DNA of 4,703 nucleotides, taken from IMG/VR virus record IMGVR_UViG_2667527818_000004. One strand, 5' to 3'. Shown piece after piece: positions 1 to 4,684 of this stretch (position 1 is the stretch's first letter; each line of letters starts with the position of its first letter). Below the pieces are notes generated by a model. It was given only the letters and a program-made list of their open reading frames with translations, was not told the DNA's origin and made no database searches. Made by a program: the position numbers and the translations under genes. This DNA is from a virus (Duplodnaviria; Heunggongvirae; Uroviricota; Caudoviricetes).

Positions 1-6
1 TAAGAC

Positions 7-26
7 TATCACTTATTTAAGTGATA
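7..26. promoter_or_regulatory. Dyad-symmetric candidate operator upstream of the first plus-strand gene
   Basis: Perfect 9-bp inverted repeat TATCACTTA (7-15) / TAAGTGATA (18-26) with a 2-bp spacer. Nearby are a weak -35-like TTGTCT (31-36) and an SD-like GGGAGG (66-71). Upstream context is cut off by the window edge, and the site could instead lie inside coding sequence if the 616-aa gene starts upstream. Confidence 0.3.
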
Positions 27-70
27 TTGGTTGTCTGGAGATTCAGGGGGCCAGTCTATTAGCGTGGGAG

Positions 71-1954: not shown

Positions 1955-2395
1955 ATGGCCACACTATCTGATACAATAAAACCGAATAAAACATATCTTG
2001 AGGCGGTACTCCGTACAGCGTTGTTAGGAAAGACAGAAGACGAATACGTTGATTTCTTCCTGTCAGGGCTACGCGGGCGATTACTGAAAAATCCCCGCCT
2101 GTACCGCAGCTATGGTCCATACTGGTCGGAAATTAAAAAATTATTACTGGAGCGCGGTTATGGTAATTTCGGTCGTCTCGTTGACCGTGACGTTCGCAAA
2201 ATTTACCGTTATGACCGCCCGGCGCTAACACTCATAGCCGCGACGCTCTACAGCCAGGAGCGTTTTGATAATGGTCAGATATACTCAGCCTGGCATTTAC
2301 TGCCAGTGCCTGAAGAGGTTGACGACCAGGACTATGAGTTTGAGTCTTACGATTTGGAAGTTGAAGCCTTGGCACAGGCTGGAGAGAAAACTTGA
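1955..2395 (+). CDS. Hypothetical protein, 146 aa, with acidic C-terminal tail; function unknown
   Basis: ATG at 1955 lies 33 nt after the upstream stop. The ORF has the same GC content as, and sits in tandem with, the 616-aa gene. The C-terminus is rich in D/E (EEVDDQDYEFESYDLEVE). Stop TGA 2393-2395 overlaps the start of the next ORF. No canonical SD directly upstream; an AGGAG at 1923-1927 is separated from the ATG by a hairpin. Confidence 0.6.
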   Translation: MATLSDTIKPNKTYLEAVLRTALLGKTEDEYVDFFLSGLRGRLLKNPRLYRSYGPYWSEIKKLLLERGYGNFGRLVDRDVRKIYRYDRPALTLIAATLYSQERFDNGQIYSAWHLLPVPEEVDDQDYEFESYDLEVEALAQAGEKT

Positions 2396-2640
2396 AAAAG
2401 CGATACTACACAGTAAAGCATGGGACGCTACGAGCATTACAAGAGTTTGCTGACAAGCATAACGTTGAGGTGCGCAGGGAAGGGGGAAGTAAAGCTCTGC
2501 GCATGTACCGTCCGGACGGAAAATGGCGGACGGTCGTCGATTTCAAAACTAACAGCGTTCCCCAGGGCGTCCGCGACCGGGCATTCGAGGAATGGGAGCA
2601 GATCATCATAGATAACGCATTGCTCCTGAATGCTGATTAA
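2392..2640 (+). CDS. Hypothetical small basic protein, 82 aa (TTG start); weak motif-level resemblance to HicA/YcfA-like small RNA-binding proteins, unverified
   Basis: TTG 2392-2394 overlaps the TGA stop of the upstream ORF (TTGA), suggesting translational coupling. SD-like GGAGAG at 2381-2386 sits 5 nt upstream of the TTG. Stop TAA 2638-2640 is followed 5 nt later by a hairpin. The alternative first in-frame ATG (about 2500) would give only 46 aa. The HicA-like resemblance (GGSKAL...RPDGKWRTVV...VPQGV) is recalled from memory and lacks the usual His residues. Confidence 0.5.
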   Translation: MKKRYYTVKHGTLRALQEFADKHNVEVRREGGSKALRMYRPDGKWRTVVDFKTNSVPQGVRDRAFEEWEQIIIDNALLLNAD

Positions 2641-2644
2641 GAAC

Positions 2645-2673
2645 TCTCCGGCCTAGGGAGATTAGGCCGGAGA
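2645..2673. terminator. Probable bidirectional transcription terminator hairpin between convergent operons
   Basis: Perfect 11-bp inverted repeat tctccggccta (2645-2655) / taggccggaga (2663-2673) with a 7-nt loop gggagat. It lies 5 nt after the plus-strand stop (2640) and 8 nt before the minus-strand gene end (2682). There is no clean U-tract on the plus strand; the minus-strand transcript would continue as GUUCUUAAUC (partial U-tract). Confidence 0.5.
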
Positions 2674-2681
2674 TAAATATA

Positions 2682-3986
2682 CTATATAAACTTAGATATA
2701 ATATCGTGAATCTGTTGTAGCGGGATTTCTTCCATCTTACTCTTAATAAGAGAGCGGTTAGATGCTGTCAGTGAAGGCCATTTTGTTTTCCAGGCTAGAT
2801 ATGCTCGCCATGAGTAGCCTGTTTCGTAAGGTTTATTCATATAAGTCATTGAGTGTTCAACCGCATGTATGTATTTTTTCTCAAAGTTGGTTCCTTTTAC
2901 TTCAAATAAACTACCGAAATAAATAAGCCATTTTGCCAGGTGTTCATACTGCTCCCATGCGCTAGACTCTTTAGTAAGATCTATTTTTTTATCTATTATA
3001 TCACAAAAAACATTTAATACCTTTTCATCATTCCAGCTATATCCAGATGATGAAATGGAGGAAATGATATGATAAAAAGAATCCTCTAACTTCAAGAACT
3101 CTATTTTATACTCTCTTCCGTTTTTTATTACCGATTTGATTGAGTGCCTCAATTTGTCTTTTATTTTTTTTGCTTCTGGAATTTTCTTGTTAAGTTTTCT
3201 AAAGAAATCAGACACCTCTGTTTTATCTATAACCCTAATCCCAAAGCAGGAAAAATAGTAATCTTTAATAGGTTGCAATAGTTTCCCTCGGGAAATAAGG
3301 AAAATATTGGAGGACATTACGTTGTCCCGTGAAAATACCTTATATTCATTTATAATCGCCTTGAGGTTCGCGTCACTTAGAGAATAGCCAAGAATAACAA
3401 TAGTGTTTTCATGTAGAACTGTGCTTAGTTTATTTGAAAAGTAAGAATTACCATTTATAAATCTGAAATAATCCTCGCTAGTAACAACCATATCTGATGG
3501 GGAGTCTATAGAGCCGTGAACATGGTAGACTTTAACCTCACAATTATATTTTGGAATTGGCAGGCCGGGGGTGATTGTACACGTTCGATTCTCTCCAGCC
3601 AGTTTTTCTGCTAACTTGTCATAATTTGTCGTAATTACTTTAAATGTGTTTTCTTTGAAAAAGTCTTGAATATATTCAATTGATGGATCAAGTTCGATTG
3701 AGGCTATGATTTTCTCAATCTCCTGGTAAATATTTTTCCCCGAAAGTATAAATTTTAGTGCAATAACCTGAGCAGCCTCTTCAAGGCTAAGGTCTTTTGC
3801 TTTTCCATCAGGAAATAATTCCTCTTTGAGTGAGTCACCATCCTTCAATAAACCGCACAGTTGCTCCAATAAAGATTGCCAACTTGGGGCTTTATCATCA
3901 GAAACAGCCTTTGAAAATCCAGTGCCTGTAAGAAAGCACAGCCTATGTGTAGCTGCTGCATAGGCAATTTCTATATACTCGCTCAT
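2682..3986 (-). CDS. SIR2-like (sirtuin/DHS-like NAD-binding) domain protein, 434 aa; ThsA-type SIR2 N-terminal domain plus an uncharacterised C-terminal domain; candidate NADase anti-phage effector
   Basis: ATG at 3986-3984 (minus) is preceded by GGAG (plus 3993-3996) with a 6-nt spacer. Stop TAG at 2684-2682. Motifs read from the translation: FLTGTGFS (residues 18-25, glycine-rich NAD-binding loop), VITTNYDKL (residues 117-125, N121) and VYHVHGSID (residues 153-161, H155/H157), followed by IVILGYSLSDANL. These match the order and spacing of SIR2_2-type defence sirtuins as I recall them for ThsA. The gene is about 30% GC against about 50% in the flanks. Confidence 0.8.
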   Translation of the reverse strand: MSEYIEIAYAAATHRLCFLTGTGFSKAVSDDKAPSWQSLLEQLCGLLKDGDSLKEELFPDGKAKDLSLEEAAQVIALKFILSGKNIYQEIEKIIASIELDPSIEYIQDFFKENTFKVITTNYDKLAEKLAGENRTCTITPGLPIPKYNCEVKVYHVHGSIDSPSDMVVTSEDYFRFINGNSYFSNKLSTVLHENTIVILGYSLSDANLKAIINEYKVFSRDNVMSSNIFLISRGKLLQPIKDYYFSCFGIRVIDKTEVSDFFRKLNKKIPEAKKIKDKLRHSIKSVIKNGREYKIEFLKLEDSFYHIISSISSSGYSWNDEKVLNVFCDIIDKKIDLTKESSAWEQYEHLAKWLIYFGSLFEVKGTNFEKKYIHAVEHSMTYMNKPYETGYSWRAYLAWKTKWPSLTASNRSLIKSKMEEIPLQQIHDIISKFI

Positions 3987-4042
3987 TACTTACTCCATTT
4001 ACTTATAGTTCTACGGAGAAGTATACCCTAATGCATTGACGT

Positions 4043-4684
4043 TTATAGATAATTTCCTTTTCCTGTTAATACTCCCTTAGGCACCTGTTTTTGTGCCAGC
4101 GTTTGGGTTCCGCGAATTATGTTAATCAGAGGGCTTAGTAACGATGGTTCCTGGCGTGCCTCAACTTCTCCAGCCATTGCCCTGATGTAGTCTGCGCTGG
4201 CAACGTTGTTGTATTCCGTCGCAAAGCAACATAGTAACGTCAGAACATGCTCTGTCGTTATTTCGCTCCAGTTGATGTTGAAAAATTCATCGCCTTTTTT
4301 GTCGTGTTCGGAATCGAAGATGCTTTGGTGGAGGATGTATTTGCCGGATTCTTTGCGCGGTAACTTGATCGCTTTCTGGCGTTCCAATTCCTTGTAAATC
4401 TGCATTGCTTCAATCAGTACCGGCCTGCCGTTCATAAAGGGATCTCGCAACCTTACACGCTGGCCAACTCGACCAGTAATAAAGCTGTTTTCCTCTTCCA
4501 CCAGCACGATAAAACCCTTTTCCTCTTTTTCTCGCAATTCGCGCAGCAGCTGGAGTTCCATGTCGCGGCGGCGTTCAGGGTAGCTGGTCCGCTCAGCCAT
4601 TATCAGCTCATTGTTGATCCATGCAGCAGTCATTGACGCCGGTTTGCCGACGCTCATTGAAACAACGCATATTTTCTTATCCAT
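4043..4684 (-). CDS. Hypothetical protein, about 214-217 aa, function unknown; encoded immediately upstream of and co-oriented with the SIR2-like gene
   Basis: ORF on the minus strand with stop TAA (plus 4043-4045). Likely ATG start at 4684-4682 giving MDKKICVV...; the ORF track's TTG at 4696 is an alternative, and the frame stays open to the window edge at 4703, so a 5' extension cannot be excluded. About 49% GC. Predicted beta-alpha-beta N-terminus (KICVVSMSV ... GFIVLVEEE). No P-loop, and no TIR or HEPN motif that I can support. Confidence 0.65.
   Translation of the reverse strand: MDKKICVVSMSVGKPASMTAAWINNELIMAERTSYPERRRDMELQLLRELREKEEKGFIVLVEEENSFITGRVGQRVRLRDPFMNGRPVLIEAMQIYKELERQKAIKLPRKESGKYILHQSIFDSEHDKKGDEFFNINWSEITTEHVLTLLCCFATEYNNVASADYIRAMAGEVEARQEPSLLSPLINIIRGTQTLAQKQVPKGVLTGKGNYL

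Follow-up and report, generated by a model that had tools for sequence, protein, structure and literature searches.

The window, the whole stretch of 4,703 nucleotides that was analysed, derives from a P1-like phage-plasmid and holds a variable slot ("RD-1") between the lxc and mat genes, in which a SIR2-family gene is the sole cargo. The following features make up the locus:

2392..2640, plus strand: lxc, encoding the C1 modulator and forming the conserved flank on the left of the slot
2641..4042: entire cassette carried in the lxc-mat slot (RD-1 of P1), 1402 bp with a GC content of 0.357, delimited by homology breaks
2645..2673: GC-rich hairpin with an 11-bp stem, between the convergent lxc and SIR2 stops, conserved in the alleles and assigned to the minus strand by the scan
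2682..3986, minus strand: SIR2-family gene, 434 aa, supported by an ORF call (ATG start), Pfam SIR2_2 and a full-length phrog_7567 match
3993..3996, minus strand: Shine-Dalgarno sequence GGAG, 6 nt before the ATG, identical in four alleles
4042..4069, minus strand: candidate sigma-70 promoter TTAACA-16 nt-TATAAA, a pattern match overlapping the mat stop codon, identical in four alleles
4043..4684, minus strand: mat (maturation control), conserved right flank, on the same strand as the SIR2 gene and upstream of it

The low-GC gene for a 434-residue protein that the initial annotation had singled out is borne out by an ORF with an ATG start, on the minus strand (a detail missing from that annotation), and a GC content of 35%, compared with about 50% in the flanks (0.353 in the SIR2 ORF vs 0.47-0.51 in darB, ulx, lxc and mat). 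Its product is identical to WP_059039611.1, which differs by one change, S342G, from the commoner WP_000006034.1, and is named "SIR2 family NAD-dependent protein deacylase" in RefSeq and UniRef. A near-identical copy of the gene, with one residue different, is carried by a complete 96.8-kb plasmid. The phrog_7567 match covers 434 of the 434 residues, and its PHROG annotation is "unknown function". The family of this protein is large, widespread and partially flagged already (PDC-S25, PHROG 7567), and is therefore uncharacterised rather than unseen; searches of the literature on PDC-S25, the WP accession, SIR2 at the P1 hotspot and standalone SIR2 brought up no functional study.

The cassette and its slot

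Homology with RCS47, SJ46 and other elements is lost precisely at the stop codons of lxc (2640) and mat (4043), and the cassette in between is 99.9% identical among P1-like plasmids. The hairpin at 2645..2673 is likely a bidirectional terminator that forms part of the cassette; other cargoes of the slot carry different hairpins at the same place. A stricter promoter scan called no promoter in front of the SIR2 gene, the candidate being missed because its -10 hexamer ends in A. Taken together, the ribosome binding site, the candidate promoter and the terminator, all conserved across alleles, would count in favour of the gene having its own expression. The SIR2 gene directly follows mat, and no terminator was predicted between the two; co-transcription from the C1-repressed and late mat promoters, rather than expression in the lysogen, constitutes another possibility. 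We also considered a hidden small or antisense partner ORF within the cassette, and rejected it, as two of the four candidates are broken by stops in other alleles and the others are unsupported.

RD-1 has been described as a variable low-GC hotspot (PMC6906374; PMC10865808). The slot contains a type III restriction-modification (RM) system in P1 and P7 (EcoP1I in P1) and a CapRel gene in SJ46, in the same orientation as the SIR2 gene, and it is empty in RCS47. The PADLOC candidates PDC-S31 and PDC-S34 occupy it in other P1-like phages, and one type of cargo, an AraC and EAL pair, is not defence-like. The defence function of the SJ46 CapRel has been validated (PMC9712102), and the CapRel-type gene from the same slot functions when 134 bp of the sequence preceding it are included (PMC10865808); in the 2023 release of PADLOC, CapRel-SJ46 figures only as the candidate PDC-S33. 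The lxc-mat slot works as a site of defence-gene exchange in P1-like phage-plasmids, and location in RD-1, a point that the initial annotation had missed, gives strong contextual support to a defence role for the SIR2 gene. Among the ~700 P1-like plasmids in PLSDB, about 9% carry this gene; as it is missing from about 90% of them, it has no core phage role.

The SIR2 domain and the helical C-terminal domain

The protein is divided into two parts, encoded as follows:

3222..3986, minus strand: SIR2 domain of Rossmann type at the N-terminus (aa 1-255), for NAD binding and catalysis
3912..3935, minus strand: glycine-rich NAD-binding loop FLTGTGFS, aa 18-25; G21, T22, G23, F24 and S25 invariant in 118 sequences
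3618..3632, minus strand: TTNYD, aa 119-123, with putative catalytic N121; invariant and aligned with the TTNYD of SeThsA
3510..3524, minus strand: HVHGS, aa 155-159, with putative catalytic H157; H155, H157, G158 and S159 invariant, aligned with the catalytic-His motif of ThsA and DSR2
2685..3221, minus strand: long connecting helix (aa 258-289) and all-alpha C-terminal domain (aa 295-433), from the AF2 secondary structure

The initial annotation had proposed a ThsA-like SIR2 domain, and profile searches agree with it. Pfam SIR2_2 (PF13289) matched aa 117-245 with E=1.4e-23 (84 bits vs a cutoff of 24.5), PADLOC SIR2-type models matched down to 9e-24, and ThsA, DSR2 and KomC were among the PDB sequence matches. 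The three motifs begin at aa 18 (FLTGTGFS), aa 119 (TTNYD) and aa 155 (HVHGS), and N121 and H157 are the residues that the annotation had named. Invariance was counted over 118 homologues with 53-60% identity, across which G21-T-G-F-S25, T119-T-N-Y-D123, H155 and H157-G-S159 showed no variation. The glycine loop for NAD binding is intact, as is the catalytic pair of Asn and His (N121 and H157), and NADase activity is predicted.

An AlphaFold (AF2) model built from the 118-sequence alignment reached a pLDDT of 86, a single-sequence model giving 38. The confident model exhibited an immune-type SIR2 fold followed by an all-helical C-terminal domain, and a structure search returned KomC, ThsA, Avs5 and DSR2 as the closest structures. 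Many structural relatives of the SIR2 domain have been deposited as helical filaments, according to PDB entry titles. Structural likeness was far higher to immune NADases than to deacylases, and the Pfam match is to SIR2_2, not to the classical SIR2 family. The protein has six Cys residues, with only C17 and C44 invariant and no CxxC pair, so the sirtuin zinc module is absent.

From residue 258 onwards the model is all-alpha, and the C-terminal domain itself forms a compact helical bundle of ~140 residues. The claim that this end of the protein is not a SLOG domain stands: in addition to its all-alpha fold, the C-terminal part had no match in a Pfam search, and the PADLOC ThsA alignments stop at the SIR2 core. 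A PDB profile search with the C-terminal domain likewise found no credible homologue in solved structures. With phmmer, a search against 1.84 billion representatives produced 76 matches to the domain, every one in the same SIR2-fused architecture. Its occurrence on other effectors was rejected, as a profile search of 5.8 billion proteins yielded the same architecture or fragments only. The ~180 C-terminal residues are an all-helical domain exclusive to this SIR2-fused family, presumed to be a sensor or regulator.

Within this domain, W344, Q346, W353, S379, M383, G390, S392, W393, W399, W403, N410 and R411 are invariant among the 118 homologues, and identity is 45% in the C-terminal half vs 62% in the enzyme half. 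In one pair of alleles, 13 non-synonymous and 3 synonymous changes fall in the C-terminal domain vs 4 and 10 in the SIR2 domain (Fisher p=0.009), an excess that was absent from the other allele comparison. The lower conservation and the non-synonymous excess in that one pair would fit a sensor-like evolution of the C-terminal domain.

Homologous loci and candidate functions

All ORFs within 3 kb were clustered across 56 homologous loci from many phyla. No conserved neighbour emerged among the 56 loci, each neighbour family being present in at most three. The initial annotation had reported no TIR, HerA or Argonaute gene and no Walker A motif among the neighbours, which was confirmed for the window, where every ORF lacks a Walker A/P-loop motif; the absence of TIR, HerA and Argonaute genes extends to the complete 96.8-kb plasmid, STAND genes were likewise found in neither, and no TIR gene was found within 9 kb on either side. 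The plasmid-wide gene survey and the all-alpha C-terminus both speak against an ordinary Thoeris system with its TIR gene just outside the window. With no conserved neighbour and no TIR, HerA, Argonaute or STAND gene, the SIR2 gene stands as a standalone module outside the described SIR2 systems.

A TIR-domain gene lies less than 1 kb away in 3 of the 56 loci, at variable distance and on either strand, and is absent from the other 53; PADLOC assigned it best to PDC-S66, with ThsB second. As a partner it was rejected, being a single-gene TIR candidate in three loci with no fixed arrangement.

Homologues in E. coli are found at a prophage end, adjoining an integrase, and elsewhere the surrounding genes include integrases and Gabija, Septu, AriA, Mrr, HsdR and TIR genes. 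Members of the family have a patchy distribution over phyla, in islands and mobile elements, and across phyla they retain a full-length architecture of 431-437 aa and every catalytic residue at 53-60% identity.

We consider that the gene probably encodes a standalone, single-protein SIR2 NADase defence module, and that it travels as interchangeable cargo in the lxc-mat hotspot (RD-1). Its own promoter would drive synthesis of the protein in the lysogen, where the protein would stay inactive. The C-terminal domain would sense a component or a consequence of infection by another phage, and this would activate the SIR2 domain, probably via oligomerisation, given that the proteins nearest to it in structure function as filaments or tetramers. 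The ensuing NAD+ hydrolysis would lead to metabolic collapse and aborted infection, which would protect the resident prophage along with the clonal population of its host. We infer the NADase activity, the phage protection and the trigger by analogy. A further, decidedly tentative proposal is that the ~140-residue helical C-terminal domain represents a new kind of direct phage-protein sensor, following a logic like that of the CapRel C-terminal domain and the tail-tube-binding domain of DSR2. If so, it would be the smallest self-contained SIR2 immune receptor known, uniting sensor and NADase within 434 residues and needing neither a partner nor a second messenger, and encoded by a cassette that is swapped with CapRel and type III RM at the P1 hotspot.

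Alternatively, the protein might be a Thoeris-like receiver without a linked synthase, its C-terminal domain binding a small-molecule signal and its SIR2 domain being activated as ThsA is by gcADPR; the signal could come from, for example, a TIR protein encoded elsewhere or the infecting phage. We regard this as unlikely. In both sequence and structure, the SIR2 domain has ThsA as one of its closest relatives, the invariant C-terminal Trp, Gln, Ser, Asn and Arg residues could line a ligand pocket, and the three loci with a nearby TIR-domain gene fit this scheme, but the remaining 53 have no such neighbour, its distance and strand are variable where it occurs, and both the window and the whole plasmid are devoid of TIR. 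Moreover, the all-alpha C-terminus has no SLOG fold, and the PADLOC ThsA profiles cover the SIR2 core only.

The RefSeq and UniRef name raises a different option, that of an NAD-dependent protein deacylase or ADP-ribosyltransferase that would modify a protein of the host or of a phage and so adjust P1 lysogeny, maturation or the maintenance of the plasmid, with no anti-phage role. The position of the gene just 3' of mat and on the same strand, with a transcript possibly common to both, is consistent with it, as is the regulatory rather than defensive nature of the AraC and EAL cargo. Nevertheless, this option is quite improbable given the SIR2_2 rather than classical SIR2 match, the lack of the sirtuin zinc module and a structure much nearer to immune NADases than to deacylases. 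A patchy spread over islands and mobile elements is what defence genes typically show, unlike housekeeping regulators, and about 90% of P1-like plasmids do without the gene. Finally, participation in a multi-gene system with mat, lxc, ulx or darB, or decay from a two-gene SIR2 system (SIR2-HerA, Lamassu-Sir2 or Kongming) into a non-functional remnant, is very improbable, as those four genes are unchanged in P1-like elements with other or no cargo, SMC, HerA and KomAB-like genes are conserved nowhere among the 56 loci, and the conserved 431-437-aa architecture and catalytic residues point to a working protein under purifying selection.

SIR2 NADases count among the most widespread bacterial immune effectors. 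To our knowledge, the mechanistically understood cases are all either large (DSR1/2, Avs5) or dependent on a partner (ThsB, HerA, pAgo, KomAB, LmuB). A compact standalone defence module would thus provide a minimal model of how a SIR2 enzyme is restrained and switched on, and a tractable one, with an E. coli host, a 1.4-kb cassette with its own expression signals, and natural "empty", CapRel and RM versions of the locus usable as isogenic controls. As SIR2 lysogens may abort infection by other phages, the gene is also of relevance to phage therapy and P1-based transduction. Should the protein prove not to be defensive, a substrate would still have to be tested to justify the generic name "protein deacylase" in RefSeq.

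Comparison with known systems

No described SIR2 system accommodates the gene, in agreement with the initial annotation: what defines ThsA, DSR1/2, SIR2-HerA, Lamassu, SPARSA and Avs5 is lacking here. SIR2-HerA (Nezha) requires an adjacent HerA-type ATPase, and none is present in the window or on the plasmid, or conserved in the 56 loci. For Lamassu, the LmuA alignment is limited to aa 20-219 of the 433 profile positions, and an SMC gene, as would be expected for the SMC-like ATPase LmuB, is absent from the window and plasmid and not conserved in homologous loci. The APAZ and short pAgo of SPARSA and the fused STAND NTPase of Avs5 have no counterpart in the protein or its neighbours. In Vassallo et al. 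2022, the sole Sir2-linked system is PD-T7-2, whose second protein resembles the HerA of Sir2/HerA; these PD systems were rejected as a match, since the protein did not match the PADLOC PD-* models.

KomC of Kongming acts with KomA/KomB and a nucleotide signal, as PDB entry titles also indicate. At 264-278 aa it consists of a SIR2 domain only, whereas the protein described here has an additional C-terminal domain, and KomA/KomB-type genes are not found near the 56 family loci. In ThsA (type I Thoeris), the SIR2 domain is joined to a SLOG/STALD domain, which is absent here, the C-terminus being all-alpha and the PADLOC ThsA alignments reaching only to the end of the SIR2 core; the ThsB/TIR gene that adjoins ThsA is missing in the window, on the plasmid and in 53 of the 56 loci.

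PADLOC gave only a partial match to a candidate, PDC-S25, the best hit with E=9e-24 and profile positions 127-283 aligned. The PDC-S25 profiles (517-528 positions) align to aa 100-253 and 88-216 only, and as the alignment is confined to the SIR2 core, the C-terminal domain is not shared; PDC-S25 is itself a predicted candidate. PHROG 2695 and 7567, like PDC-S25, are among the closest known entries.

CapRel-SJ46 is encoded in the same lxc-mat slot and orientation of a sister P1-like phage, and is also a single polypeptide, in which a toxic enzyme at the N-terminus is followed by a C-terminal domain with regulatory and sensory roles. However, its RelA/SpoT-type enzyme is unrelated to the SIR2 NADase, and sequence similarity is absent.

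Like DSR2 and DSR1, the protein consists of one chain in which a SIR2 NADase domain precedes an alpha-helical C-terminal region, and it has no partner gene. DSR2 was at the top of the Foldseek results, with isolated DSR2 SIR2 chains at TM 0.73 (normalised to target length), and matched in sequence over aa 51-260 (E=1e-8). The protein had been judged too short for either, and its 434 aa vs ~1000-1260 aa in DSR1/DSR2 are reflected in NCBIfam scores of 30.5 bits (Dsr2) and 21.2 bits (Dsr1) vs cutoffs of 1400, all from the SIR2 core; outside this core, no sequence similarity to DSR1/DSR2 was detected, and the DSR C-terminus is a long HEAT-like solenoid in contrast to the compact helical bundle found here. 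DSR2 depletes NAD+ on sensing a phage tail-tube protein, according to PMC11087589. DSR1/DSR2 are the nearest match in likely mode of action.

The SIR2 gene, its active site and its expression signals

The initial annotation had singled out a low-GC gene with three SIR2 motifs, and its description proved accurate: an ORF of 434 codons was found at that position, with a GC content of 0.353 compared to 0.47–0.51 in the adjoining genes, and the three motifs were present, with Asn at 121 and His at 157 as it implied.

Features of the SIR2 gene and its product
2682-3986, minus strand: SIR2 gene, 434 codons, ATG start (ORF call)
From aa 18 of the product: FLTGTGFS motif
From aa 119: TTNYD motif, residue 121 being Asn
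From aa 155: HVHGS motif, residue 157 being His
6 nt before the ATG: GGAG ribosome-binding site (read from the sequence)
4069-4042: candidate promoter TTAACA-16 nt-TATAAA, overlapping the mat stop codon
2645-2673: GC-rich hairpin with an 11-bp stem, between the SIR2 stop and the convergent lxc stop

The assignment to the SIR2 family, which the initial annotation had tied to a profile match, was upheld by Pfam SIR2_2 (PF13289) over aa 117-245 (E=1.4e-23; 84 bits against a cutoff of 24.5). PADLOC matches were obtained for PDC-S25 (9e-24), ThsA (7e-18), LmuA (4e-13) and Dsr2 (3e-8), all four alignments being confined to the SIR2 core. A sequence search of the PDB retrieved SeThsA (3e-9) and DSR2 (1e-8), as well as BcThsA and KomC, and the TTNYD and H-x-H-G motifs were aligned. 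Moreover, G21-T-G-F-S25, T119-T-N-Y-D123, H155 and H157-G-S159 did not vary in an alignment of 118 sequences. The protein thus has an intact active site of the immune type, and its identity as a SIR2-domain protein is near certain. Within the coding sequence, four short antisense ORFs were dismissed as mechanical, and other alleles interrupt two of them.

A search of 5.8 billion proteins yielded 660 relatives. The best 120 were nearly all 431-437 aa long (a few outliers, 405-465 aa) and shared 54-61% identity across 90-100% of their length (mostly 95-97%); their hosts included Vibrio, Halomonas, Pseudoalteromonas, Marinobacter, Klebsiella, Pantoea, Pseudomonas, Delftia, Paracidovorax and others. 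The best database labels were phrog_7567 ("unknown function") and PDC-S25, itself an unvalidated candidate that matched only in part. As the gene is annotated "SIR2 family protein" in hundreds of records and its family is large, it is not an unseen gene; a search of the literature, in which a recent paper may be missed, found no functional study, name or fitting described system for it.

The SIR2 gene follows mat in the same orientation after 56 nt in which no terminator was predicted, and in P1 mat has one C1-repressed sigma-70 promoter and one late promoter. The candidate promoter overlapping the mat stop was not reported by a stricter scan. The stretch from this candidate to the ATG, ribosome-binding site included, was identical in the four plasmid-borne alleles compared, and hardly any change was seen in the terminator hairpin or in the upstream 100 nt, coding divergence among these alleles reaching 95 of 1305 nt (7.3%). 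We infer that the SIR2 gene is expressed in the lysogen.

A C-terminal domain private to one architecture

Used by itself as the query against 1.84 billion representative proteins, the C-terminal domain gave only 76 matches. Every full-length one was 406-480 aa long with the domain in the same place, and SIR2_2 lay upstream of it in all ten matches checked (seven divergent full-length, three shorter). A profile search of the 5.8 billion proteins found it in no other architecture, and its additional hits were all fragments from this family. As all matches were of this architecture or such fragments, the domain is exclusive to the SIR2-fused form and private to this protein's family. Mean identity to the window protein was 45% for the C-terminal domain versus 62% for the SIR2 domain; W344, Q346, W353, S379, M383, G390, S392, W393, W399, W403, N410 and R411 were invariant in the 118-sequence alignment.

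Plasmid-borne alleles fell into classes of at least 99%, about 97.6% and about 92.5% nucleotide identity, and two comparison alleles (L083 and L082, 1501-2805) were set against window positions 2682-3986. Against the 97.6% allele, non-synonymous and synonymous codon changes numbered 4 and 10 in the SIR2 domain versus 13 and 3 in the C-terminal part (Fisher p=0.009), whereas against the 92.7% allele the two halves were alike (18/37 and 12/20). Faster protein evolution of the C-terminal domain is therefore weakly and partially supported, by one allele pair and not the other.

The RD-1 slot of P1-like phage-plasmids

The slot is flanked by P1 genes, and homology with other P1-like phages ends exactly at the lxc and mat stops; the cargo is therefore 2641-4042.

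Genes flanking the slot
Left flank of the window: darB, C-terminal part (P1 gene)
1955-2395, plus strand: ulx (P1 gene)
2392-2640, plus strand: lxc (P1 gene)
4043-4684, minus strand: mat (P1 gene)

Other contents of the slot (L handles denote fetched comparison loci)
Phage P1: mod/res of EcoP1I
Phage P7: mod/res of EcoP7
RCS47: empty
SJ46 (L012, 3074-4195): RelA/SpoT-family gene, 373 aa, oriented as the SIR2 gene
MH422554.1 (L084, 2789-3829): unannotated 346-aa DUF2971 protein, PADLOC PDC-S31
JL22 (L085, 2798-3748): PIN_12-domain protein, partial PDC-S34 match
Two other genomes (L013 and L014, 3075-4700): AraC-HTH and EAL pair

As the RelA/SpoT gene of SJ46 is the only one of its kind under the match and encodes 373 aa, we take it to be CapRel-SJ46, a fused toxin-antitoxin protein with experimentally demonstrated anti-phage activity, activated by a phage capsid protein (PMC9712102). 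In the 2023 release of PADLOC this gene is still the candidate PDC-S33. The SIR2 gene thus resides in a slot that bona fide defence genes use. The slot has been named RD-1 and described as a hotspot of low GC with mat and lxc invariably at its two sides, and a CapRel-type gene was functional when transferred together with the 134 bp preceding it; neither source mentions a SIR2 cargo (PMC6906374, PMC10865808). Of about 699 PLSDB plasmids bearing ulx-lxc, 66 had the SIR2 gene, as did 70 of 5,426 complete E. coli genomes (71 of 72 places on plasmids), its hosts being E. coli, E. fergusonii, Salmonella and Klebsiella.

Directly after the lxc stop lies a GC-rich hairpin that differs for each cargo (window 2641-2680; same positions in L011, L012 and L013). 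Since each cargo has its own hairpin and homology breaks exactly at the lxc and mat stops, the sequences suggest that cassettes are exchanged by recombination in the conserved flanking genes and not by a site-specific mechanism.

Several further observations concern the slot and its surroundings. OP279344.1, titled "P1 isolate del res del mod", carries the AraC and EAL pair and not an empty site. In a few unrelated genomes, SIR2 homologues also have DUF2971 or PDC-S31 proteins beside them (3 and 2, respectively, of the 121 neighbours). Window positions 1-58 are the terminal 58 nt of IS2, and 80-106 match darB about 2.1 kb upstream of where homology resumes (105 onward), so darB (1-1921) is broken: IS2 has inserted, and about 2.1 kb has been lost from the interior of what is, when intact, a 6768-nt gene. 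The 616-aa GTG "ORF" at 71-1921 is a darB remnant, and the DarB anti-restriction function has probably been lost.

Neighbours, mechanism and relation to known systems

We fetched 67 homologous loci, one genome per species, among them loci of Gamma-, Beta-, Alpha- and Zetaproteobacteria, Desulfobacter, Actinobacteria and one MAG labelled Proteiniphilum. Clustering of every ORF of at least 60 aa within 3 kb, in the 56 loci with a full-length gene copy, revealed no conserved partner: no neighbour family occurred in more than 3 of the 56. The SIR2 gene is autonomous of its neighbouring genes. A homologue of 56% identity occupies a prophage end in E. coli chromosomes, directly after the integrase. 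Among 121 larger neighbours PADLOC detected mad3/mad8, AriA, PtuA, GajA/GajB, PDC-S31 and TIR proteins, and Pfam detected phage integrases, Mrr, HsdR, ResIII and AAA_21, so the surroundings are defence islands and mobile elements. In the Halomonas locus L007 (8700-11664), a 401-aa gene with no assigned family and a 591-aa DUF87 (HerA-like) gene follow about 1.4 kb downstream of the homologue, with HNH, HSDR_N and DUF4145 genes upstream; this dense defence island may contain a separate HerA-type system.

A Thoeris-like receiver responding to a small-molecule signal made in trans is an unlikely reading. The invariant polar and aromatic positions would suit it, as would a TIR-domain gene within 1 kb of the homologue in 3 of the 56 loci (L018 7406-8308, L024 7979-8842, L040 4459-5205; two lie downstream and are co-oriented, the third lies upstream in the opposite orientation), but the protein has no SLOG fold and its locus no linked TIR gene. 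The best PADLOC match of these TIR genes was the single-gene candidate PDC-S66, with ThsB second; we read them as island neighbours, maybe coincidental or occasionally paired in function, and keep them as a caveat on the Thoeris question. The absence of nearby TIR, HerA or Argonaute genes noted initially extended to a complete 96.8-kb plasmid bearing a near-identical copy (one residue different), whose annotations included no TIR, HerA, Argonaute, SMC or STAND gene and against which tblastn with the three TIR proteins gave only noise; likewise, a Walker A motif is absent from every ORF of the window, in line with the initial remark on the neighbours. The RefSeq name implies a true deacylase or ADP-ribosyltransferase; such an enzyme, with a role in phage regulation, is improbable, since the fold comparison speaks against it, as do the lack of a zinc module and the scattered occurrence on mobile elements. 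It is very improbable that the gene belongs to a multi-gene system or has decayed as an orphan, with flanks constant under any cargo and the full architecture kept across phyla.

The window protein probably serves in defence. In DSR2, the helical C-terminal region binds a phage tail-tube protein and NAD+ is then depleted (PMC11087589), and structures of KomC, ThsA, Avs5 and FAM118B are deposited as helical assemblies, judging by entry titles. By analogy with DSR2 and these relatives, the resting protein would be autoinhibited; the C-terminal domain would recognise an infection cue, the SIR2 domains would then come together, NAD+ would be hydrolysed, and the infected cell would cease to support phage growth. 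This mechanism as a whole is favoured on balance. NAD+ depletion is a likely effector step; that the C-terminal domain senses a phage protein directly is a tentative proposal. The protein may be described as a putative further architecture within a known kind, single-protein SIR2 NADase immunity. That another SIR2 architecture exists will not surprise the specialist; even so, this one is appealing and simple to test, being compact, having a private sensor-like domain and being swapped as a cassette with CapRel and type III RM at a single P1 locus.

The initial view that the gene fits no described SIR2 system held for each one compared. With 21 and 30 bits, the Dsr1 and Dsr2 equivalogs fell far short of their cutoffs of 1400, consistent with its exclusion from DSR1/DSR2; the SLOG domain and ThsB partner that define ThsA are both missing, as had been noted; and the defining features of SIR2-HerA, Lamassu-Sir2, SPARSA, Avs5 and Kongming are lacking. 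In its logic of action the protein would be nearest to DSR1/DSR2, while as regards its locus the gene is likened to CapRel-SJ46, though it is a member of neither.
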